A stretch of DNA of 48,596 bases, from the NCBI GenBank assembly GCA_045535385.1, contig JAZSLN010000036.1, positions 1-48,596 of the forward strand, read 5' to 3'. Shown in pieces: positions 12,516-21,110 of the stretch (position 1 is its first letter; each line of letters starts with the position of its first letter). A program made the translations under genes and the position numbers. The notes beneath the pieces were generated by a model. The model was not told where the DNA came from and searched no databases. It saw only the letters and a program-made list of their open reading frames with translations. Origin of the DNA: Eubacteriales bacterium. GTDB lineage: Bacteria; Bacillota; Clostridia; Oscillospirales; CAG-382.

Positions 12516-15179
12516 TTATATTTGCCTTAATGCATGATTGTATGTGCCTAATGTAAGCTTGACGGTTACGTTTAGATTGTTTTTATCAAGTGATATATCA
12601 CAATATTCGGTTTCCGTATACGTGTTGCCGTTTGGCAAGGTATAGGTTTTCGTGTATTTAATAATAATATCGTGTCTAAACTCATCGGAGGTAATTTTAC
12701 CTTTTATGGTTCCGTCTTTGCCGGTGATCGTATTTTCAAACTGAGCATCGGCGTAGATCTCGTTAAGATCATAGGTGATTTCAACACCCGAAACAGGTTC
12801 GTTGGTATAATAGTCCAATACCGTTATGGAGAAATCGTATTCGTGAATCGGTTCGAGCTCGATCTCCATGTAGGTTTGGTATAGACCGGCGCTCTTTGTG
12901 TTCAAGACCGGTAAATAACCGTCGCACTCGCATTTGGCGGCGAATGACGAAGAACGTCCCGATACATATTCCATCAGAGGAGCATAGACCGCGATTCCGT
13001 CGCCATCGGTATAAACAGTCCTTTCGTCCAGCGTAACCTTGGCGTTTTTCAACGGTTCTTTTGTTTCCGAATCTATAACCTTTACCCTGAAATTCTCGTA
13101 AATGTCGCGATAGACGATTGCATTGTTAATGTAATCTGTTTTGATCGGATACAGAGATACCGGAGCTTCGAAATAAGGATAATCGATTGCCCGAGAATCG
13201 CTGTAAAACTTACCGCTGACGGTTATGGAGTGAACGTATTTGTCCACGTAAACATCGGAATCAAAAAGGAAGGTATAGGTTCCTACGGGACATTCAAATC
13301 GGAAAAGACCGTCGCTGTTGGAATACACATAGTCGATTTTCTTACCGCTTTCGGTGCATATCCATATTTTGAGTCCCGATTTTTTAATTATACCCTTTTC
13401 GATAACGCTCTCGTCGGTTGCACCGTATGGTACAGTTCCGCGGTCGCCCGAACGCTCGAACATCAAGTCGACGTCAGAGAGCTGAATATACGTCGGCGTT
13501 AAGTCGCCTCCGTGATATTTCAACCTATCGGATTTGACGTTTAAGTCCTCGGGAGTTTGGTGAGTGCTTTGCATCGCGCTCGGCTGTTTTTCCTCTTCTG
13601 TCAAAGCAGAATCGATAACCGCTTTTTCGTCTTCGGTAAGCGGAAGAGTGCGTCCTTTTTCAAAATCGACGATATTTCCTCCGACGCTGTCGTATACAAG
13701 GTCGTCGTTTCCGATAGTGATTACGTGAGTGCCGACTAATTCAGCCGCTTCCTCTGTCCAGCTTCCGCTGTTGACGATATCGCGTATTTTTTGCGCTTCT
13801 TCGTCGGTGATATCAAGATATCGGTCGGCGGGTCCGGAATCGGTGTAGGCTAAAATATCGCCTTCGTATTTGATAGACTCGGCGGTCGTTTCGCTGTTTT
13901 CCGTGCTGTTTTCCGAAGCGTCATCGGAGACATCGGATGAATTATCCTTCGATTCCTGCGATTCTTCCGAATTTTCCGATGAATCGGTGCTTTCGCTCGA
14001 TACATCCTTGTCCGCATTGTTGTCTTTCGGCGGCGAAGTAAGGAAGAATACCGAAACGGTAATCGTTAGGATTATGGCAACGATGATTATCCAGAACATC
14101 GGCTTTTTATAGGTCAACGCGTTTTTTACTCTTTGCTTTACCCCAACTTCGCCGAAAGCGACCGGGCAGGCGGCAATAGAACTTCGCTTTATGCCGCATT
14201 CGAGGAGCGCGCCCGCGTATGCCTTTCTCGACTCGATGCTCATTTTTTCGACAACCTTTTCGTCGCAAGCGGTTTCGATATCTCTGCAAAGGAGTATATA
14301 CGCGATCCATATGAGAGGGTTGAACCAATAAACCGCAAGAAGCATATATCCGAACGGCTTAATAAGATGGTCAAGCCGCTTGAGATGCGCTCTTTCGTGG
14401 GCGATTATGAGCGATTCGGTTTCGGGAGAAAGCCCGAAGGGAAGATATATTCTCGGCTTGAAAATGCCCAGAATAAAGGGGGATGCGACGTTTTCGCATC
14501 GGCGGATACTGTTGCCGTCCGGGATGGATTCCGCAACCCTACCTCTTAAAACAAGGTAGTTGATTATAGCGTACCCCGCCATTATCGCTACGCCGATCAT
14601 CCAAACGATGCTTCCGATATCGGCAAAGGTCTTTAGCGGATTCTTATTCGGATCCTCAGAAACCTTCGACGAGATGGCTGTATTTACACGGTCGTCTACG
14701 GGCTTGATTCCCGACTGGACGTATTCTTTGTCGGGCGCCGTTTCAGGTGCGGCTTCCTCGTCGGGTATTGCTTGGGGTAGGCTGTTTTCGCCCGAAGATG
14801 CTTCGGTGTCGGTTTTGTCGATGTTGGTTATCGGAGGCAGTATTATCGGTTCGTGTTCGCTTTGCTCCTGTCGGAACTCCGAAGCTTCACCCGAAATACT
14901 ATCCGAAACCGATTCCGAAACGGTATCGGAAATAACGTCGGAAGATACCTCCAACGTATTTATTGCATCGGGATTGAGTGTTTGGGAGCTTGGTATAAGG
15001 CTTATATCGCTTTCGATGGAGAACGGGACAATAAGACGTAATCCCACTACCGCCCACAAAAGGCAGACCGTCCATCTCGGCGCAAGTTTTTTGAAAACAA
15101 GCCTTATTATAACAACCGCAGCAATAAGCCAGGAAGTCGAAACACTCAGGTTGAAAAGATGAATGAATATTTCGGACAA
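12516..15179 (-). CDS. BlaR1/MecR1-like M56 zinc-metalloprotease signal transducer with a non-PBP extracellular C-terminal region
   Basis: 887 aa. HEXXH is present as IIAHERAHLKRLDH, with FNPLIWIA just downstream. TTG start with a GGAGGTG RBS that overlaps the blaI-like stop. No SxxK penicillin-binding domain. The C-terminus has three carboxypeptidase-regulatory-like beta-sandwich signatures. Confidence 0.8.
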   Translation of the reverse strand: MSEIFIHLFNLSVSTSWLIAAVVIIRLVFKKLAPRWTVCLLWAVVGLRLIVPFSIESDISLIPSSQTLNPDAINTLEVSSDVISDTVSESVSDSISGEASEFRQEQSEHEPIILPPITNIDKTDTEASSGENSLPQAIPDEEAAPETAPDKEYVQSGIKPVDDRVNTAISSKVSEDPNKNPLKTFADIGSIVWMIGVAIMAGYAIINYLVLRGRVAESIPDGNSIRRCENVASPFILGIFKPRIYLPFGLSPETESLIIAHERAHLKRLDHLIKPFGYMLLAVYWFNPLIWIAYILLCRDIETACDEKVVEKMSIESRKAYAGALLECGIKRSSIAACPVAFGEVGVKQRVKNALTYKKPMFWIIIVAIILTITVSVFFLTSPPKDNNADKDVSSESTDSSENSEESQESKDNSSDVSDDASENSTENSETTAESIKYEGDILAYTDSGPADRYLDITDEEAQKIRDIVNSGSWTEEAAELVGTHVITIGNDDLVYDSVGGNIVDFEKGRTLPLTEDEKAVIDSALTEEEKQPSAMQSTHQTPEDLNVKSDRLKYHGGDLTPTYIQLSDVDLMFERSGDRGTVPYGATDESVIEKGIIKKSGLKIWICTESGKKIDYVYSNSDGLFRFECPVGTYTFLFDSDVYVDKYVHSITVSGKFYSDSRAIDYPYFEAPVSLYPIKTDYINNAIVYRDIYENFRVKVIDSETKEPLKNAKVTLDERTVYTDGDGIAVYAPLMEYVSGRSSSFAAKCECDGYLPVLNTKSAGLYQTYMEIELEPIHEYDFSITVLDYYTNEPVSGVEITYDLNEIYADAQFENTITGKDGTIKGKITSDEFRHDIIIKYTKTYTLPNGNTYTETEYCDISLDKNNLNVTVKLTLGTYNHALRQI

Positions 15180-15182
15180 GGC

Positions 15183-15542
15183 TTATTCACCTCCGCGCTC
15201 GATAATTCGTTGTATTTCTTCGACGTCCTTTTGCGAAAGATTTTGTTGCTTTGCAAAAGCGGCGATAAACGCAGGAAGCGATCCTTCGAATCGTTTTTCG
15301 AACATTTCGTCCAACTCTGCGCGCTGTATCTCGTCCTTCGATACGATTGAGGATACGATGGAATTTTCGTTTTTCAAAACACCGCGCTCTTCGAGACGTT
15401 TGATGACGGTATAGGTCGTCGTGCGCGACCAATCGAGCTTTTCCTTGCAAAGCTTCGCGAGGTCCTTGCACGCCATCGGCTCGACTTCCCATAAAATAAG
15501 ACAGAATCTGTATTCACTTTCGAAAATTTTGGGTGTATTCAT
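15183..15542 (-). CDS. BlaI/MecI/CopY family transcriptional repressor
   Basis: 119-aa winged-helix protein. Contains SEYRFCLILWEVEPMACKDLAKLC...WSRTTTYTVIKRLEERGVL. It lies immediately upstream of, and is translationally coupled to, the M56 gene. Confidence 0.85.
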   Translation of the reverse strand: MNTPKIFESEYRFCLILWEVEPMACKDLAKLCKEKLDWSRTTTYTVIKRLEERGVLKNENSIVSSIVSKDEIQRAELDEMFEKRFEGSLPAFIAAFAKQQNLSQKDVEEIQRIIERGGE

Positions 15543-15561
15543 ATGTAATTCCTCGCTCTTC

Positions 15562-15573
15562 TGTATATATACA
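15562..15573. promoter_or_regulatory. Perfect 12-bp palindrome TGTATATATACA between the promoter and RBS of the blaI-like gene (candidate operator)
   Basis: The sequence is self-complementary and contains the TGTA/TACA half-sites used by BlaI/MecI/CopY repressors, although in TGTA-N4-TACA order. Confidence 0.35.
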
Positions 15574-15586
15574 ATTATCCACCTAT

Positions 15587-15615
15587 ATTCTAATGCGTTA
15601 GACGTCGCGTGTCAA
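15587..15615 (-). promoter_or_regulatory. SigA-type promoter of the blaI-blaR1-like operon: TTGACA-17-TAGAAT
   Basis: Read on the minus strand, with the spacer counted as 17 nt. It lies about 45 nt upstream of the start codon. Confidence 0.5.
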
Positions 15616-15690
15616 GAGAAAATCGAAAAATTTTGATTCTTCGAGGGAAATTCCGTTATTTGACGGTTGTATTTGAAAACGAATTAAATA

Positions 15691-15728
15691 TAAAAACAGA
15701 ACCTGAAGGTATGTACCTAAAGGCTCTG
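15691..15728 (-). terminator. Rho-independent terminator after the acyl-CoA ligase gene
   Basis: The minus strand reads CAGAGCC-UUU-AGGUA-CA-UACCU-UCA-GGUUCUG, followed by UUUUUAUAUUU. Confidence 0.5.
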
Positions 15729-15805
15729 CTTCGTTTTATACAATTAAGGTTTGTGAGTTTTTAAGAGTGAAAATCACACCGAAATATCCTGTTTTGTCAA
15801 GCGGA

Positions 15806-17515
15806 TTACATAGGCGAGCCGTCTTTTGCACGGCGAATCTTGTTTGTCGTCGTTTTAACGAAGGGCTCTTCGCGGATGATAACGTGGGTTATCTGCTTAT
15901 AGGTCGGTAACTGAGCGAGCTTTTCGTAAATATCGCTCTTTAGCTTTGCGGTGAGCTCGTCCTTGTTTCCGCTCGCGAGATAATCGGGGTCGAGCGCACA
16001 TTGAACCGCAAGCGCATCCTCGGTACCGTCTTCGGCGCGTGAGCCGTAGACGATGCATTCGAGAACGTAGGGAATACCGCAAATATAATCCTCAAGCTCC
16101 TCGGGATAGATGTTCTTGCCGTTGCCGAGGATGATAATATTCTTCTTACGGCCGGTAATAACGATCTGACCGATGCTTGTTATCTTGCCGTAGTCGCCGG
16201 TACGGAAATAGCCGTCCTCGGTGAATGCCTCGGCAGTAGCTTCGGGGTTTTTGTAATAACCCAGCATAACGGTGTCGCCCTTGACGCATATCTCACCCTC
16301 TTCGTCTTCGTTCGGGTCGTCGATACGTACGTCAACACAAGCCATAGGGAATCCTACGGTGCGCGGGTCGCTGATAAAGTCGGTGTTGACCGATACGAGG
16401 GGCGAACATTCGGTTATACCGTAGCCGTTGTTTACAAGAATACCGATGTCGTTGAAGAAATCGACGATTTCAGCACGGAGCGGAGCACCGCCGCAGATCA
16501 ACAAGACAAGGTTTCCGCCGAGACCGGCGTGGATTTCGGCGAATATTTTGCGTCTTGCGTCGATGCCGATAGCACGTAGGAAGTTAGAAAGCTTGCGTGC
16601 GGTTTTGATCGTTTTTGTCTTGCCCTTTTCTTCGATGCTCGCGTTAAGACGGCGGTAAAGAACCTCCATAAGCGCGGGAACAACGTACATATATTCGGGC
16701 TGATAAAGCGCGAGGTTTTTAACGATTCTCTTTAAGCTGTCGTTTATAGCAACGGTATTGTGTCTGTGGATAGCCACGAGAATGCCGGCAATAGATTCGT
16801 AAGCGTGATGGTAGGGAAGCACCGATAACGCGGTGTCGCGGAGGCTGGTTAGCTTGAGTCCCCAATGTATAAGCGATTTGATGTTGTGCTCGGAGAGCAT
16901 AACGCCTTTTGCCAGTCCCGTTGTGCCCGAGGTATAGATGAGCATTTTCATAGCCATCATATCCTTGGTTTCCATTTCACAGAACTCGCGGTCGCCGTCT
17001 TCGTAAAGCTTTTTGCCCTTCTTCATAAGAAGCTTGAAGGATAAAAACTCGCCTTCGTCCTCTTCTCTGTCGAAGGAAACGAAATATTTAACGTTGGGGA
17101 GTTGGTCGCGGATGGAACGGAATATCTCCTCGCGCTTCTTGTCGCAGAAGATTATATCGTCGTCGCCGTGGTTGATAACCGTAACGAGGTCATCCGCAGG
17201 AAGCTCTTTGTCGATAGGGCAGAAAACACCTTCGCTCTGGAGCGCAGTAAGGAAAACAGCTATCCAATTATAGCTGTTCTCGGCACAGCAACCGATATGG
17301 CCTCTCGCCATTCCGAGCGAGTTGAGTCCGGTGCCGATGTAGAGAGTATCCATACGGAAATCACGGTAGGTAACCTCGACAGTGCCACCTTTTCCACGGT
17401 ATTTATATGCGATTTTGTCGCCTGCATCGTCGGCAGCCATCAAAAGCATGTGCTTTATATTTTTAGGTTCGGGAAGATTCATTTCCGGTTCTCTTGCGAG
17501 AGCGTTTTTTGCCAT
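15806..17515 (-). CDS. AMP-dependent (long-chain type) acyl-CoA ligase
   Basis: 569 aa. AMP-binding motif LIYTSGTTGLAKGVMLSEHN, FRTGDYG, and a C-terminal TTTNKIRR. The gene has its own promoter and terminator. Confidence 0.85.
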   Translation of the reverse strand: MAKNALAREPEMNLPEPKNIKHMLLMAADDAGDKIAYKYRGKGGTVEVTYRDFRMDTLYIGTGLNSLGMARGHIGCCAENSYNWIAVFLTALQSEGVFCPIDKELPADDLVTVINHGDDDIIFCDKKREEIFRSIRDQLPNVKYFVSFDREEDEGEFLSFKLLMKKGKKLYEDGDREFCEMETKDMMAMKMLIYTSGTTGLAKGVMLSEHNIKSLIHWGLKLTSLRDTALSVLPYHHAYESIAGILVAIHRHNTVAINDSLKRIVKNLALYQPEYMYVVPALMEVLYRRLNASIEEKGKTKTIKTARKLSNFLRAIGIDARRKIFAEIHAGLGGNLVLLICGGAPLRAEIVDFFNDIGILVNNGYGITECSPLVSVNTDFISDPRTVGFPMACVDVRIDDPNEDEEGEICVKGDTVMLGYYKNPEATAEAFTEDGYFRTGDYGKITSIGQIVITGRKKNIIILGNGKNIYPEELEDYICGIPYVLECIVYGSRAEDGTEDALAVQCALDPDYLASGNKDELTAKLKSDIYEKLAQLPTYKQITHVIIREEPFVKTTTNKIRRAKDGSPM

Positions 17516-17550
17516 AACATAAGACCTCTTTTGCTAATGTTTCTGTATCG

Positions 17551-17579
17551 ATTATAGTGCTTTTTATAAATTAAGTCAA
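17551..17579 (-). promoter_or_regulatory. Consensus SigA promoter TTGACT-17-TATAAT for the acyl-CoA ligase gene
   Basis: Read on the minus strand, with the spacer counted as 17 nt. A TGTCGAA (0A-box-like) heptamer lies upstream at 17612-17606. Confidence 0.55.
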
Positions 17580-17611
17580 CGAAATAGAAAAAAATTCATA
17601 AAATATTCGAC

Positions 17612-17641
17612 AAAAAATGCCGCGCGGCTAAACCGCGCGGC
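17612..17641 (-). terminator. Rho-independent terminator after the dockerin-protein gene
   Basis: GCCGCGCGG-UUUAG-CCGCGCGGC followed by AUUUUUUG on the minus strand. Confidence 0.75.
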
Positions 17642-17664
17642 GGAATGATTGAAATCAATCAATA

Positions 17665-18777
17665 TTAATCAACATATTTGGCATTAAAAGTCGATACATC
17701 GCCGATGTCGGCTCTGTCGAGCTCGGTTACCGCAAACATAACGGTGAACAAATCCGGAAATATTCCGTCCATGCTCCATCGGTCGATGTATACCGTAAGA
17801 CCGTTCTTGCCGTAAGTGACGGCGGCGGTATAAGCAACGTAGCTTCCGTCGGGAAGACCTATTTGTGTAAGAGTGAGCACCTTGGTGTCGAAAAAGTCTT
17901 CGGGAAGAGATTCTGCATATTCCGCAAGCTCGCGATTTCCGTCGCAAAGCTCTTCAAGCTGCTCGAAGTTAGTTATAAGGCGGTGAGGAAGAATTTCTTC
18001 CGTGACTATACACGAGTCGGCACTGAAAGAATAGTTAACACCGTAAATGTTAGCTTCGATAATTTCAGCGCGAGCAGAAGTACAGTCCGCGATATCGGAT
18101 TTGTTGACTTCCGCGGTCATAAGACGGTTTTGACAGTCATCTGTGCCTTCGCCATAGCCTATTACCGAGATCTCGGTAAGAATTTCGCTTCCGTTAACCT
18201 TTACACCTTCAATGCTGATGATCGCAGAGCCTGTAGAAGCGAAAACGGGAGTTATAACGAGCGCCTTGGTTTCGAAATAGTCATCGGAAAGCGCTTCGGC
18301 AAAATCAATAAAGGGCTCGTCGTTAACGGAATTGCCGTAATTGAGATAGACATCAAGCAAAGCGTTAAGCTGATCGGAATCGGTAATGAGGAACGAAACC
18401 AATTCCATACCGTATTCGGGACGGATACCCTGAATGTCATATTCTTCGAGAGAACCCGAAAGACCGTGTGCCGTGTAGGGGATGTCTTTTTCCTCGACAA
18501 CTACGTCGCTTTCGACGGAAAGATATGCTGCCTTAACGAGAATACAGTCGAAAATGTTGGTTTTGCCGTCGCCGTTAACGTCGCCGCCGTTAAATTCGGG
18601 GACAGTATCGATAGATCCGAGGTAAATACCCTTGATGAAGATATAGTCGAACATATTTACTTTACCGTCGCCGTTAACGTCGTAGATGTCTTGGTTCGGT
18701 TCAGCCTCTGCAACAGCCGATAAGGGAACAATTGCGGTCATAAAAACAACAAGGATGAGGGAAATAAGCTTTTTCAT
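17665..18777 (-). CDS. Secreted dockerin-containing protein with two copies of an uncharacterised ~105-aa domain
   Basis: Start at MKKLISLILVVFMTAIVPLSAVAEA (AAAGGAG RBS and a signal peptide). Two dockerin Ca-binding repeats, DVNGDGKVNMFD and DVNGDGKTNIFD. These are followed by two related domains containing YFETKALV/FFDTKVLT. Confidence 0.8.
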   Translation of the reverse strand: MKKLISLILVVFMTAIVPLSAVAEAEPNQDIYDVNGDGKVNMFDYIFIKGIYLGSIDTVPEFNGGDVNGDGKTNIFDCILVKAAYLSVESDVVVEEKDIPYTAHGLSGSLEEYDIQGIRPEYGMELVSFLITDSDQLNALLDVYLNYGNSVNDEPFIDFAEALSDDYFETKALVITPVFASTGSAIISIEGVKVNGSEILTEISVIGYGEGTDDCQNRLMTAEVNKSDIADCTSARAEIIEANIYGVNYSFSADSCIVTEEILPHRLITNFEQLEELCDGNRELAEYAESLPEDFFDTKVLTLTQIGLPDGSYVAYTAAVTYGKNGLTVYIDRWSMDGIFPDLFTVMFAVTELDRADIGDVSTFNAKYVD

Positions 18778-18863
18778 ATGTAATGCTCCTTTCGCATACT
18801 GTTTTTTGTCCTCATACATTAAGTACGGAAAAAAGAGGGAACATTACAAAATTTTTGAGAAAA

Positions 18864-20939
18864 TTATTTGTATTCGCTTAAATATTTATGAAGCATTACC
18901 GTGTATGAGTCGCGGCCTTCATCGGGGTAGATAAGACAATAGGAATAATAATCTTCGATATATACACAAATTTGCGTGCTGTGATGCTTGATATCGTAGA
19001 TTTTCGCCGTTACGGTTACTTTTCCGTTCTCGTCGGTGAAACGCTCGACTAAATCACCCGGACCGTAATAATCGCCGACGAGTACCGTCGCATTTTTGAT
19101 CGGCTTTTTCGTTGTTTTATCGATAACCGTTATTTCGATATTGGATATGGTTTTTTCTGCGGACGGAGTCAGCTCGACAATATGCTCTTTGCCCTCTTGC
19201 GTAACCTTGAAATCACGGTTGTCGTATCCGTCTGCAACCACGGAATAGCTTTTAGAAAGATAGAAAACAGCCGAAATTATACCGTTTTCATCGGAGCGGA
19301 GGTAGGAGTTGTGAGTAACGGATACGTTTTTTATCGGTTTTTTTGTTGTTTTGTCTATGAATTTGACGGTAGCTTCACCGGGATTATATTTGAAATCGCT
19401 TTTGCGCATAAGTGAAAAACGAATTGTTGCAACCTTTCCGTCTTCCGTTCTTTGGGATAGCTTCACTCCGGCATCTTCCTGAACAAAAACGCAATAATTC
19501 TTATCGGTTGCGTCCTTGGCATTACGCGGATGCAATTCATTGTTGCCGGCGAATCCGATGTGATAATTTTCACCTACAGGTATAACGAAACGCGCCACTC
19601 CGTCGCTGTTGGTTATCGATCGTTGAACGATATTGTGTTCGTCGTCGTAAAGGAAAAGCTCAACTCCCGAAAGCTTCATACAGGGATCGGAATCCGAAAA
19701 CAAAACAAGTCTTTTGTCCGTGAGGTATACGTAAACGGGATTATAGTAAGAGCCTATGAACTCGGGCTCCTCGGTGATTTCGGTTCCGTATCCTTCGGGG
19801 GTTTGATTGTTGATATTTATTTCATTATAAGGATTTTTTTCGAAAGGAGGAACGGGAAATTCATAAGGAGAGGGGAGTGCGCCCTCACTTTCGTCTAAAA
19901 CAACATTAAAAAGCTCACATCCCGCAAGTAATTCTTTTTCTACTTCGGCAACGACTACCGAATATACCTCGTCGGTTTCGGCTTCTTCGGCAAGGGTGTG
20001 CTTGACGGTCATCGTGATTCCGTTTTCGTCGGCGCGAAGCGAGGATATCTCGAAATTACTTCTGCCGTCGGACGAAGCAATATAGGTCGAGATAATCGCC
20101 TTGTCTTCGAAATAGTCATTGCCCTTTTTGAAGTATTGTTTTATATCGGTACCGCTTTTTCCGTATTCCTCGAGCTCATCGAATTCGGGTTCGAAAATGA
20201 AGAATAGATCACCGTACACGCTAACCTTCAAATCAGGTTTTCCGTCGATAGACTCGATTACTCGGTCTTTGATTCTATAGTTGAAGGTGTAGGGAGTAAA
20301 TTTAATATCGCGCGGGGTCTCGTCGTATTCACCGACCTTGCCGCTTACCGGATAAACGTGTTCTTCTATAATAGTTTTTGCGGTTTTGCATCCGCCGATG
20401 TCGGATTTGTTGACTTCGACAGTCATAATATAGGACAATGTGGCATCGAGACATATGGTGGGGGTTTTTGTGCTTATCGAAAGGGTTATTCCGCTTTCGT
20501 CGATACGAACGCTTTCGAGCTCGACAACTATGCTTATAGATGGCATAGTGCAGTCAGACAGAATAAGAGCCTTTGTGTCGAAAAAGTTTTCGCCGTACTT
20601 CTCAATGAATTCTTCATAGGTCATTCCGCGTTCCGTAGCAGCTAAGATTTCTTTCATTTCCTCGTTGCTTGTTGCGACGAGTGTCATAGTATCGCTATCC
20701 GAACTCGTCGGCATACGGAGGTTTCGGAATTCGCCCGAAAATCCGTTTTTGATGTAATCAAGCTCGCGCGGAGTTACGTCCCAAGTCGGCTCTTCGGACG
20801 GTTCGGAAGTATCCGATTCTGACGTATGATTGGATATGTCCGACGGCTCGGACGGGATGTTTGAAATATCGACCGTTTCGGCACAACCGACAGCCAAAAG
20901 ACAAAGCATTAATAATAACGGTAAAAATTTAATTCTCAT
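18864..20939 (-). CDS. Lipoprotein with 2 x the ~105-aa domain plus three carboxypeptidase-regulatory-like beta-sandwich modules
   Basis: Start at MRIKFLPLLLMLCLLAVGCAE (lipobox LAVGC; AAAGGAG 8 nt upstream; the track start at 20957 is upstream of that RBS). FFDTKALI...TVEVNKSDIGGC and YFEDKAII...VAEVEKELLAGC are repeats. The C-terminus has NSDGVARFVIPVG, VKFIDKTTKKPIKNVSV and TVIDKTTKKPIKNATV. Confidence 0.75.
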   Translation of the reverse strand: MRIKFLPLLLMLCLLAVGCAETVDISNIPSEPSDISNHTSESDTSEPSEEPTWDVTPRELDYIKNGFSGEFRNLRMPTSSDSDTMTLVATSNEEMKEILAATERGMTYEEFIEKYGENFFDTKALILSDCTMPSISIVVELESVRIDESGITLSISTKTPTICLDATLSYIMTVEVNKSDIGGCKTAKTIIEEHVYPVSGKVGEYDETPRDIKFTPYTFNYRIKDRVIESIDGKPDLKVSVYGDLFFIFEPEFDELEEYGKSGTDIKQYFKKGNDYFEDKAIISTYIASSDGRSNFEISSLRADENGITMTVKHTLAEEAETDEVYSVVVAEVEKELLAGCELFNVVLDESEGALPSPYEFPVPPFEKNPYNEININNQTPEGYGTEITEEPEFIGSYYNPVYVYLTDKRLVLFSDSDPCMKLSGVELFLYDDEHNIVQRSITNSDGVARFVIPVGENYHIGFAGNNELHPRNAKDATDKNYCVFVQEDAGVKLSQRTEDGKVATIRFSLMRKSDFKYNPGEATVKFIDKTTKKPIKNVSVTHNSYLRSDENGIISAVFYLSKSYSVVADGYDNRDFKVTQEGKEHIVELTPSAEKTISNIEITVIDKTTKKPIKNATVLVGDYYGPGDLVERFTDENGKVTVTAKIYDIKHHSTQICVYIEDYYSYCLIYPDEGRDSYTVMLHKYLSEYK

Positions 20940-21002
20940 AAAACGAACTCCTTTCATGCGTTTTCAATAATATTGTACGTTTTTTCGGAAACACCTTACA
21001 CA

Positions 21003-21033
21003 AAAAGCAAAAAACCGCCGTTTCGGGCGGTTT
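21003..21033 (-). terminator. Rho-independent terminator after rlmH
   Basis: The minus strand reads AAACCGCC-CGAAAC-GGCGGUUU followed by UUUGCUUUUUG. Confidence 0.6.
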
Positions 21034-21110
21034 CGGGGCACAAGTCTATTCTTTCGCCCGAACTAATTATACCATCCGGGCAATGCGATGTCAAGTCCGT
21101 TCACTCCGTG

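Follow-up and report, generated by a model that had tools for sequence, protein, structure and literature searches.

The window analysed here, a stretch of 48,596 nucleotides from contig JAZSLN010000036.1 of a Eubacteriales bacterium (assembly GCA_045535385.1), carries a gene pair, blaI-M56 (15542 to 12516, minus strand), that is a non-canonical BlaI/BlaR1-type signalling pair. The membrane protease of this pair ends in an ordered extracellular cassette, to which we give the name KABC after its modules (K, which carries a QTPE motif, followed by A, B and C), and a homologous cassette ends a lipoprotein encoded nearby. We hold with moderate confidence that KABC is an autonomous extracellular unit that serves as the input of the sensor. 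The window's own assembly comprises 1.65 Mb and is 74% complete, and the genomes compared with it are metagenome-assembled genomes (MAGs), in which several of the loci end at contig borders. Five genes are relevant, all on the minus strand and transcribed in the order lipoprotein, dockerin protein, AMP-binding acyl-CoA ligase, blaI and M56, and murA converges on the M56 gene from the opposite side:

18864..20957, minus strand: lipoprotein of 697 amino acids with modules N-N-K-A-B-C (signal peptide ending LLAVGC; module map)
17665..18819, minus strand: dockerin protein of 384 amino acids with two N modules (Pfam Dockerin_1, E 1e-12)
15806..17515, minus strand: AMP-binding acyl-CoA ligase gene (Pfam AMP-binding, E 1e-60; own promoter)
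15183..15542, minus strand: blaI-type repressor of 119 amino acids (Pfam Penicillinase_R, E 4e-21)
12516..15179, minus strand: M56 sensor of 887 amino acids (Pfam Peptidase_M56, E 6e-48)

Peptidase_M56 (PF05569) matched the sensor with 164 bits against a cut-off of 31, and the HExxH/ExxxD protease site is intact (HERAH at residues 261-265, D270, and ETACD at 302-306). Hydropathy places hydrophobic helices at residues 11-29, 37-55, 184-202 and 365-383, a four-helix pattern that fits the BlaR1 topology and by which residues ~384-887 are predicted to be extracellular. The Penicillinase_R repressor ends 4 nt ahead of the M56 start, and it is 88-92% identical to the BlaI proteins of three related loci (L032, L048 and L056). 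No match to PF00905 or to a beta-lactamase was found in the sensor, and Pfam, AlphaFold2 (AF2) and Foldseek results describe its ectodomain as J-K-A-B-C. We class the protein as a non-canonical member of the BlaR1/MecR1 group because it lacks the C-terminal penicillin-binding sensor domain. An earlier note on this DNA had called the sensor a BlaI-linked M56 protease, and the Peptidase_M56 match and the adjacent Penicillinase_R gene, together with the lack of a penicillin-binding domain, confirm that assignment. The parts of the sensor are as follows:

14031..15179, minus strand: membrane and protease part, residues 1-383 (Peptidase_M56, motifs, helices)
13875..14039, minus strand: acidic Ser-rich linker, probably disordered, residues ~381-435 (77% D/E/S/T/N over 380-436)
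13590..13874, minus strand: J module of the ectodomain, residues 436-530 (recurrence in relatives; no Pfam match)
13395..13589, minus strand: K module, residues 531-595, with a THQTPE motif (family alignment; aligns to lipoprotein residues 373-425)
13104..13394, minus strand: module A, residues 596-692, of CarboxypepD_reg type (PF13620, 35.7 bits against a cut-off of 32.3)
12825..13103, minus strand: module B, residues 693-785 (module scores, family alignment; AF2 confidence, pLDDT, of 82-94 here)
12519..12824, minus strand: module C, residues 786-887 (module scores, family alignment, AF2 model)

Linkers comparable to the acidic linker occur in relatives, and the J module is also found in two M56 proteins (that of L032, and P0019) and two lipoproteins (P0008 and P0009). 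The lipoprotein of the window has the following modules, on which PF13620 scored 23.7 bits, below the cut-off of 32.3, and all prealbumin-type Pfam matches were sub-threshold:

20349-20696, minus strand: module N1 (module map)
19878-20240, minus strand: module N2 (module map)
19683..19841, minus strand: K module, residues 373-425, with an NNQTPE motif (BLASTP, family alignment, profile)
19383..19682, minus strand: module A, residues 426-525 (module scores; weak Pfam SpaA and bMG3 matches)
19149..19382, minus strand: module B, residues 526-603 (module scores; 41% identical to module C over 41 residues)
18867..19148, minus strand: module C, residues 604-697 (module scores; the sole cassette module kept in the orthologues P0156 and P0157)

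BLASTP of the two full proteins gave one collinear high-scoring segment pair between sensor residues 530-826 and lipoprotein residues 373-657 (35.8 bits, E 7e-6). The identity is just 25%, with 20% gaps, and in single-sequence searches of the genome each cassette found the other as its only other match, at weak E-values of 0.3-0.9; these figures would be compatible with a chance resemblance, or with the generic CarboxypepD_reg motif occurring three times over. Against that explanation, the two cassettes align with 33.5 bits, ~8.5 standard deviations above 500 shuffles of the lipoprotein cassette (mean 16.1, standard deviation 2.0, maximum 25.4). Furthermore, a KABC profile built from nine relatives, with both window proteins left out, was run against all 5957 six-frame open reading frames (ORFs) of the genome and returned only two at E<=10, namely the sensor (E 2.3e-94, profile positions 10-345 of 348) and the lipoprotein (E 2.6e-17, in one collinear stretch from profile positions 9-303 of 348 to lipoprotein residues 377-673). 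The genome holds at least eight other generic matches of CarboxypepD_reg/SpaA type (contigs C103, C4, C98, C37 and C45), and because the relatives-only profile skips every one of them, the similarity exceeds the generic motif. Both proteins also have in common the K module, whose conserved motif, (H/N)QTPE ... P.Y(V/I), stands ahead of A in these two proteins and in all relatives. We consider the chance or generic-motif explanation extremely improbable and reject it, as it is ruled out by the relatives-only profile result. That profile also supplies the independent figure for the lipoprotein, whose E-values in the exhaustive and genus searches are inflated by the presence of its cassette in the query alignment.

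The earlier note had proposed that the sensor and the lipoprotein end in the same three-module cassette, aligned module by module in the same order, and had asked whether the similarity went beyond the generic CarboxypepD_reg motif. The pairwise alignment is significant and does go beyond it, and all peptides quoted there were found at their positions in the 887-residue M56 protein and the 697-residue lipoprotein. The shared modules are therefore real, but the unit starts ~65 residues earlier, with the K module. Likewise, the common order is backed by the family alignment and the profile, whereas a one-to-one match of B to B and C to C is not shown by the pair. In Smith-Waterman comparisons scored against shuffles, the two A modules gave z-scores of 7-8 with each other, and A against any B or C gave ~0-2. 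Sensor B scored 7 with lipoprotein B, 8 with lipoprotein C and 6 with sensor C; the lipoprotein's own B and C scored 9-10, and the two C modules ~3. By these scores, A is a module type of its own, and B and C are two copies of a second type; because B and C belong to one repeat type, separate B-to-B and C-to-C orthology is unsupported by the pair.

An exhaustive profile search of 1.84 billion representative proteins yielded 1374 matches at E<=1e-3. About 25 proteins match the whole KABC profile in one stretch, and most of the remaining matches are giant proteins of 1000-5000 amino acids in which the B/C-type repeat alone matches 5-22 times. In all whole-cassette proteins, KABC lies at the C-terminal end, distal from the membrane anchor. 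The carriers are of at least four kinds, in uncultured gut and rumen Clostridia:

KABC on M56 sensors: P0005, P0010, P0017, P0019, P0021, P0023, P0024, P0025, P0038
KABC on lipoproteins: P0008, P0009, P0011 (with LRR_5), P0013, P0027 (with an N module), P0029, P0030
KABC on a dockerin protein: P0066, arranged Doc-N-N-K-A-B
KABC on single-pass membrane proteins with a short cytoplasmic N-terminus: P0039, P0041, P0055, P0063, P0098, P0105, P0127

An anchor, an acidic linker and KABC alone make up the lipoproteins P0013, P0029 and P0030 and the sensors P0017, P0024 and P0025, and because several proteins hold just these parts, KABC can be regarded as a functional unit in itself and not a spacer. 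The lipoproteins P0008 and P0009 carry the full sensor-type ectodomain J-K-A-B-C, with 99% of the cassette aligned at 42% identity, and no BlaI or M56 gene lies within 10 kb of P0009. Certain residues are invariant across KABC proteins that are only 25-45% identical, among them the TP of QTPE, P..Y and NS.G..F. The single-pass carriers are anti-sigma-like by position because sigma-type genes stand directly upstream in two loci: in L052, from a Ruminococcus sp. MAG, a gene for an extracytoplasmic function (ECF)-type sigma factor (Sigma70_r2 and Sigma70_r4) ends 13 nt upstream of the carrier gene, and in L051, from a Clostridia MAG of buffalo rumen, the carrier gene overlaps at its start with a gene that encodes HTH_3 and Sigma70_r4. 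At L052 (5515-10416), the ECF sigma gene is followed by the gene of the 750-residue single-pass protein and then by that of an LRR_5-dockerin protein; the 750-residue protein has KABC and a weak cohesin-like match (18.9 bits, below cut-off), and the locus possibly encodes a sigma/anti-sigma unit linked to a surface system of cohesins and dockerins. A scan of metagenome contigs for further loci gave none, and scans of genome contigs gave few. In the literature that we searched, neither the KABC cassette nor the fact that lipoproteins and anti-sigma-like proteins share it was described.

The presence of KABC on a membrane sensor and on a lipoprotein of the same locus invites a comparison with the RsgI regulators of Clostridium (Acetivibrio) thermocellum, which the earlier note had drawn. 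In the strict form of that idea, the sensor mirrors the lipoprotein, both cassettes bind the same ligand, and BlaI controls the lipoprotein-dockerin operon. The two cassettes are indeed each other's sole relatives in the genome, 3.7 kb apart. However, a maximum-likelihood tree of 33 cassettes places them on distant branches. The window sensor falls within an M56 clade with P0005, P0010 and P0007, whose sister is the lipoprotein pair P0008/P0009 (support 98/91), and the next group out consists of the LRR-lipoproteins (support 100/99). The window lipoprotein lies far from the sensor and groups with the dockerin protein P0066 on a long branch (98/91, to be read with the caveat of long-branch attraction). 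The sensor cassette has 42-45% identity to lipoproteins of other organisms, far more than the 25% that it has to the neighbouring lipoprotein. As judged from the tree and these identities, the lipoprotein cassette is an old, divergent paralogue of the sensor cassette and not a copy or mirror of it. On the well-supported branches of the tree, the M56 label must have changed four times or more, and so must the lipoprotein label; KABC has thus been exchanged repeatedly between carriers.

P0066 and the window lipoprotein are collinear over N-N-K-A-B (residues 56-581, 28% identity, E 4e-54). The N-N-K-A-B arrangement is old, because P0066 shares the same order, and the lineage of L056 and P0157, in which K-A-B is missing, has therefore probably lost it. 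We also considered whether the lipoprotein had recently acquired K-A-B from the neighbouring sensor gene, and rejected this given the long distant branch and the collinearity with P0066. Among the positional orthologues of the sensor, L048 and L056 have a J-KABC ectodomain. A further positional orthologue, at L032 (819-4439), has the C-terminus of an AMP ligase upstream, a BlaI 91.6% identical and an M56 core 72% identical to those of the window, and an ectodomain of two N modules, J and further modules without KABC. Its C-terminal module resembles the ectodomain of the M56 protein on contig C74 of the window's genome. The L032 ectodomain differs despite ~90% BlaI identity, and ectodomains have therefore been swapped between close orthologues. 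In L049 (246-2582), which encodes P0007, an in-frame fusion joins ~90 N-terminal BlaI residues to the final part of an M56 protein. The M56 part retains a conserved stretch before the last helix, that helix and an N-J-KABC ectodomain, and the protease domain is missing; the fusion is either a natural deletion or an assembly artefact.

Gene order offers some support for the mirror idea. In the related genome L056 (GCA_054298135.1), the order is as in the window (NFACT, ThiF, flavin reductase, rlmH, lipoprotein, dockerin protein, AMP ligase, BlaI, M56, murA, RNase J), with identities to the window of 91% for the AMP ligase, 88% for BlaI and 59% for M56, in which J-KABC is kept. The doubt raised in the earlier note, that the two genes might never co-occur in related genomes, is therefore dispelled, and the neighbourhood, whose conservation it proposed to test, is conserved in so far as the lipoprotein-dockerin-ligase-blaI-M56 order recurs in this one genome. 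The cassette pair is not conserved there, since the L056 lipoprotein lacks K, A and B even though the L056 sensor keeps KABC. The L056 lipoprotein, of 463 amino acids, aligns to window lipoprotein residues 16-376 and 606-697 (63% identity each) and lacks the 229-residue K-A-B segment. Orthologues of the lipoprotein at L056 (10001-11392) and L057 (1166-2584) are 60-63% identical to it and miss precisely residues 377-605, keeping just module C behind two N modules; P0157, from a third sample, is also without K-A-B.

Within the genus, a KABC match was found in 12 of 60 other species genomes, one in each, and only the window's own genome has two. About half of the 12 matches are on M56 proteins and about half on short, lipoprotein-sized ORFs, with G067 matching by module C only. 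The pairing of sensor and lipoprotein is clearly not conserved in the genus, in which many of the 60 genomes are incomplete, so that absence from any of them is not proven. Sharing of modules between sensors and surface proteins, by contrast with the pairing itself, is a theme of the genus, and the recurrence of this sharing with other modules counts in favour of a mirror logic: in G012 a sensor and its neighbouring lipoproteins share LRR_5, and in G023 the neighbouring ORF is 61% identical to part of the sensor. Beside the other two M56 genes of the window's genome (contigs C74 and C76), no mirror modules were found.

The individual cases are varied. In G012 (L036, G012:C26, 6799-13016), an M56 gene with a BspA-type LRR_5 ectodomain is directly followed by two LRR_5 lipoprotein genes, the LRR_5 regions of sensor and lipoproteins are similar at E 1e-14 to 1e-17, and one of the lipoproteins is LRR_5-KABC. 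The 61% identity in G023 is between the ORF upstream of the sensor and a piece of that sensor's ectodomain. The sensor ectodomain of G002 is 36% identical over 274 amino acids to a lipoprotein with three N modules that is encoded on a different contig of that genome, and a lipoprotein of G007 shows similarity over 430-510 amino acids to the sensor ectodomains of G023, G003 and G005. In L045 (G018:C35, 7701-10763), a 795-residue M56 gene is followed after a 40-nt gap by a 211-residue ORF that is 66% identical to part of the G023 sensor ectodomain, an arrangement that looks like a split or broken sensor gene.

The transcriptional signals of the window bear on the same question. A promoter and terminator consensus scan indicates three transcription units, lipoprotein plus dockerin, ligase, and blaI-M56, with the following signals:

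21066-21094, minus strand: promoter of the lipoprotein-dockerin unit, a perfect TTGACA-17-TATAAT (consensus scan)
17619..17641, minus strand: strong intrinsic terminator ending the lipoprotein-dockerin operon (10-bp stem with 9 G-C pairs, then a T run)
17551-17579, minus strand: separate promoter of the ligase gene (promoter scan)
15587..15615, minus strand: blaI-M56 promoter, TTGACA-17-TAGAAT (promoter scan)
15588-15603, minus strand: probable BlaI operator GTCTA-N6-TAGAA, GTCTAACGCATTAGAA (one mismatch; orthologous promoters)

The AMP ligase gene, with its own promoter, stands between the lipoprotein-dockerin unit and the blaI-M56 unit, and as far as can be read from sequence, the lipoprotein and sensor genes belong to separate transcription units and are regulated separately. 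Orthologous blaI promoters have in common a palindrome, GTCTA-N6-TAGAC, that lies between and over the promoter hexamers (two copies each in L032 and L033, one in L048, and one with one mismatch in L056), and this palindrome overlapping the promoter is the probable BlaI operator. The regions compared were window 15562-15603, L032 380-440, L033 9560-9615 and L048 140-170. A second palindrome, TGTATATATACA at 15562-15573, was rejected as the operator: it occurs as a single copy in the window and is not conserved in the L032, L033 and L048 promoters, and GTCTA-N6-TAGAC was preferred because of this. It stands where the second operator copy of L032 and L033 would be. The BlaI/CopY-type operator TACAnnTGTA is absent from the window. 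Other good operator matches in the genome, on contigs C21, C79 and C42, adjoin TTGACA promoter-like hexamers and might serve other BlaI paralogues as operators.

Scans of the window and of the 74%-complete genome found no GTCTA-N6-TAGAC site near the lipoprotein, dockerin or ligase promoters, which argues against control of the lipoprotein-dockerin operon by BlaI. That operon has its own promoter, conserved leader and terminator, and lies upstream of blaI with an unrelated gene between. The occurrence of KABC on anti-sigma-like proteins, one of them beside an LRR_5-dockerin gene, and the cohesin matches in the genome add to the points in favour of mirror sensing. Weighed against the 25% identity of the cassettes, their distant branches, the L056 lipoprotein without K-A-B and the lack of a second KABC match in any of the 60 genomes, they leave us to regard mirror sensing by this pair as distinctly unlikely. 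The RsgI-like logic suggested in the earlier note therefore stands at the level of the family and genus, where sensors carry modules also found on surface proteins, but it is unproven for this pair, and the notion that the two cassettes of the window are mirror copies is not supported.

A different challenge comes from the predicted structure. The AF2 model of sensor residues 527-887 was built from an alignment of 7 sequences (mean pLDDT, the predicted local distance difference test, of 73; predicted template-modelling score, pTM, of 0.60) and consists of a small alpha/beta K element and three beta-sandwiches. In Foldseek searches against the PDB, the cassette matched CnaB-type domain arrays of Gram-positive pilins (4oq1, 3kpt and 5f44, E 4e-8 to 1e-5) and also SdrD B repeats, and single modules matched the transthyretin-like domain of carboxypeptidase D (5aq0, root-mean-square deviation 2.2 A, TM score 0.77 normalised to the target). 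No carbohydrate-binding-module fold was among the PDB matches of the sensor cassette. The KABC sandwiches are accordingly modelled as a transthyretin/CnaB-like fold. Because of this fold, a structural reading stays alive in which KABC is a structural or wall-associated tail (perhaps a rigid array of beta-sandwiches, or a module that retains proteins in the cell wall) that has been spread by domain shuffling, with no sensory meaning, and the window pair is a by-product. Pilin shafts, SdrD B repeats and transthyretin-like domains rank best among its structural matches, the B/C repeat multiplies in the giant surface proteins described above, the cassette moves freely between carriers, and the pairing is not conserved. 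C-terminal wall-binding modules are, moreover, common in Gram-positive surface proteins. On the other side, a pure spacer would have nothing to hold in proteins that comprise only anchor, linker and KABC, and the cassette, being distal to the anchor, does not stand between it and a head domain. The order K-A-B-C and a set of invariant residues have been preserved across proteins of 25-45% identity. That two unrelated kinds of transmembrane transducer make use of the cassette suggests that it takes part in signal input. We therefore regard the tail reading as possible but rather unlikely.

The reading that we prefer is a non-canonical BlaIR pair with KABC as its extracellular input. In the mechanism that we propose, KABC would bind an extracellular ligand or partner, and a ligand on the KABC of the sensor would activate the cytoplasm-facing zinc protease. 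The activated M56 protease would cleave BlaI, and this cleavage would relieve repression at GTCTA-N6-TAGAC of the blaI-M56 promoter and at further targets. On lipoproteins and dockerin proteins, KABC would display the same binding activity at the cell surface; a link between the sensor and the lipoprotein operon is hypothetical. Several observations weigh against this reading. No ligand or binding site of KABC was identified, and no BlaI targets beyond the blaI promoter were found in the window or in the 74%-complete genome. Stalk domains of Gram-positive pili and adhesins typically have this fold, giant surface proteins commonly contain the B/C repeat type, and the AF2 model itself has a low-confidence loop at model residues 132-166 and a shallow alignment of 7 sequences. 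The anti-sigma role suggested for the single-pass carriers is drawn from gene adjacency at two loci. In addition, BlaR-like proteins can apparently work with unstructured C-termini, as in CenR, so that a folded input domain is not required (PMC13492132). It is conceivable, but unlikely, that KABC is more specifically a dedicated input module for one ligand (a polymer of plant or host origin, a component of the wall or a protein of the surface), plugged into both BlaR-type and ECF sigma/anti-sigma chassis, with lipoproteins and dockerin proteins binding that same ligand.

The other parts of the lipoprotein and the dockerin protein place the locus in a surface system. The lipobox signal peptide of the lipoprotein is MKGVRFMRIKFLPLLLMLCLLAVGC, with a single N-terminal hydrophobic helix, and LLAVGC is kept in its orthologues P0156 and P0157. 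Dockerin_1 (PF00404), the duplicated calcium-binding segment, matched the 384-residue protein with 48.4 bits against 22.9, and cohesin matches above the cut-off are present in the window's genome. The N modules of the dockerin protein are homologous to those of the lipoprotein (E 2e-12). This module of ~115 amino acids occurs twice in the lipoprotein (19878-20696) and twice in the dockerin protein (17668-18402), and it is also found on M56 ectodomains and lipoproteins of relatives. In its model (pLDDT 79), two helices pack against a sheet of five to six strands. No relatives of the N module were found in Pfam, by sequence in the PDB or by Foldseek (best E 0.14), and it is an uncharacterised extracellular domain.

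The leader of the lipoprotein gene is a further feature of the lipoprotein-dockerin unit:

20958..21094, minus strand: lipoprotein leader, with the promoter at 21066-21094 and a terminator-like hairpin at 21011-21034 (scan, conservation)

The promoter, of sigma-70 type, sits between the rlmH stop codon and the terminator-like hairpin, which another hairpin precedes, and because of this position transcripts would reach the terminator after ~35-55 nt. A leader segment, TTCGGGCG, can pair with GCCCCGAA or with CGCCCGAA of the terminator stem, a layout that looks attenuator-like. The leader is ~80-90% identical in L056 (9813-10000) and L057 (1008-1165), far better conserved than the coding sequence. 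No Rfam match to a known RNA or riboswitch was found in it, and the fold z-score is just -0.9.

Comparison with known systems helps to define what is unusual about the window pair. Like BlaR1/MecR1 with BlaI/MecI of Staphylococcus aureus and Bacillus licheniformis, it has an M56 zinc protease with HExxH and ExxxD motifs and four predicted membrane helices, a C-terminal domain after the last helix that is predicted to be extracellular, an adjacent Penicillinase_R winged-helix repressor, and a palindromic operator on its own promoter. Unlike them, the sensor has J, K and three transthyretin/CnaB-like sandwiches in place of a class-D-beta-lactamase-like penicillin-binding domain, no beta-lactamase or PBP2a-type target gene lies near the pair, and the operator is GTCTA-N6-TAGAC and not of the TACA/TGTA type. 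Atypical BlaR-like systems have been described in Pseudomonas and mycobacteria, and a protease without a transpeptidase domain is also a property of CenIR of Clostridioides difficile (PMC13492132), Mycobacterium BlaIR and PvmSR of Pseudomonas aeruginosa (bioRxiv 10.64898/2026.08.03.742534). The ectodomains of these three systems are short, unstructured or absent, whereas the window sensor has ~450 residues that are predicted to be folded and extracellular, whose modules, unlike those of such non-canonical BlaIR, recur on lipoproteins, a dockerin protein and anti-sigma-like proteins.

As in the RsgI/SigI systems, a transmembrane regulator ends in a type of module that is also found on surface or cellulosome-like proteins, in the same group of organisms, which have dockerins and cohesins. 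The window sensor is without RsgI_N (no match in Pfam), SigI or a SEAL-type juxtamembrane domain, its partner is a BlaI repressor, and its output would be BlaI proteolysis. Pfam and Foldseek gave only CarboxypepD_reg/SpaA-type matches and no known carbohydrate-binding module (CBM) or glycoside-hydrolase (GH) module in the sensor. The shared module is none of the known CBM, GH or PA14 domains, and the sensor-lipoprotein pair is not conserved. In fold and in the motif TD..G.f.f..l..G.Y., modules A, B and C resemble CarboxypepD_reg (PF13620), SpaA prealbumin-like (PF17802) and CnaB domains. Unlike the CnaB domains of pilins and adhesins, KABC has a fixed order after a K element and stands at the distal C-terminus of membrane- or cohesin-anchored proteins, and unlike pilins, the KABC proteins have no LPXTG sorting signal or pilin motif.

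Only ~6% of ~15,000 M56 proteins have a penicillin-binding domain; the proteins fall into 254 domain architectures, and the ligands of the rest are unknown (PMC13492132). In this 2026 survey, ~94% of BlaR-like proteases are without that domain, and KABC may help to identify what non-antibiotic BlaR-like systems sense. The cassette is folded and recurrent, it is available as small anchor-linker-cassette lipoproteins suited to ligand screening, and its presence on anti-sigma-like proteins would offer a second, independent read-out. If no ligand were found, ordinary domain shuffling among extracellular proteins would account for the distribution of KABC. If one were found, orphan BlaIR and sigma/anti-sigma systems of uncultured gut and rumen Clostridia would, as a whole group, gain an assigned signal, and the sensors and surface proteins of these bacteria would be seen to draw on one pool of modules. 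Should the reading of KABC as a dedicated input module for one ligand be true, the system would be a BlaIR-based counterpart of the RsgI biomass-sensing network, and it would provide the first predictable ligand class for a non-canonical BlaR.

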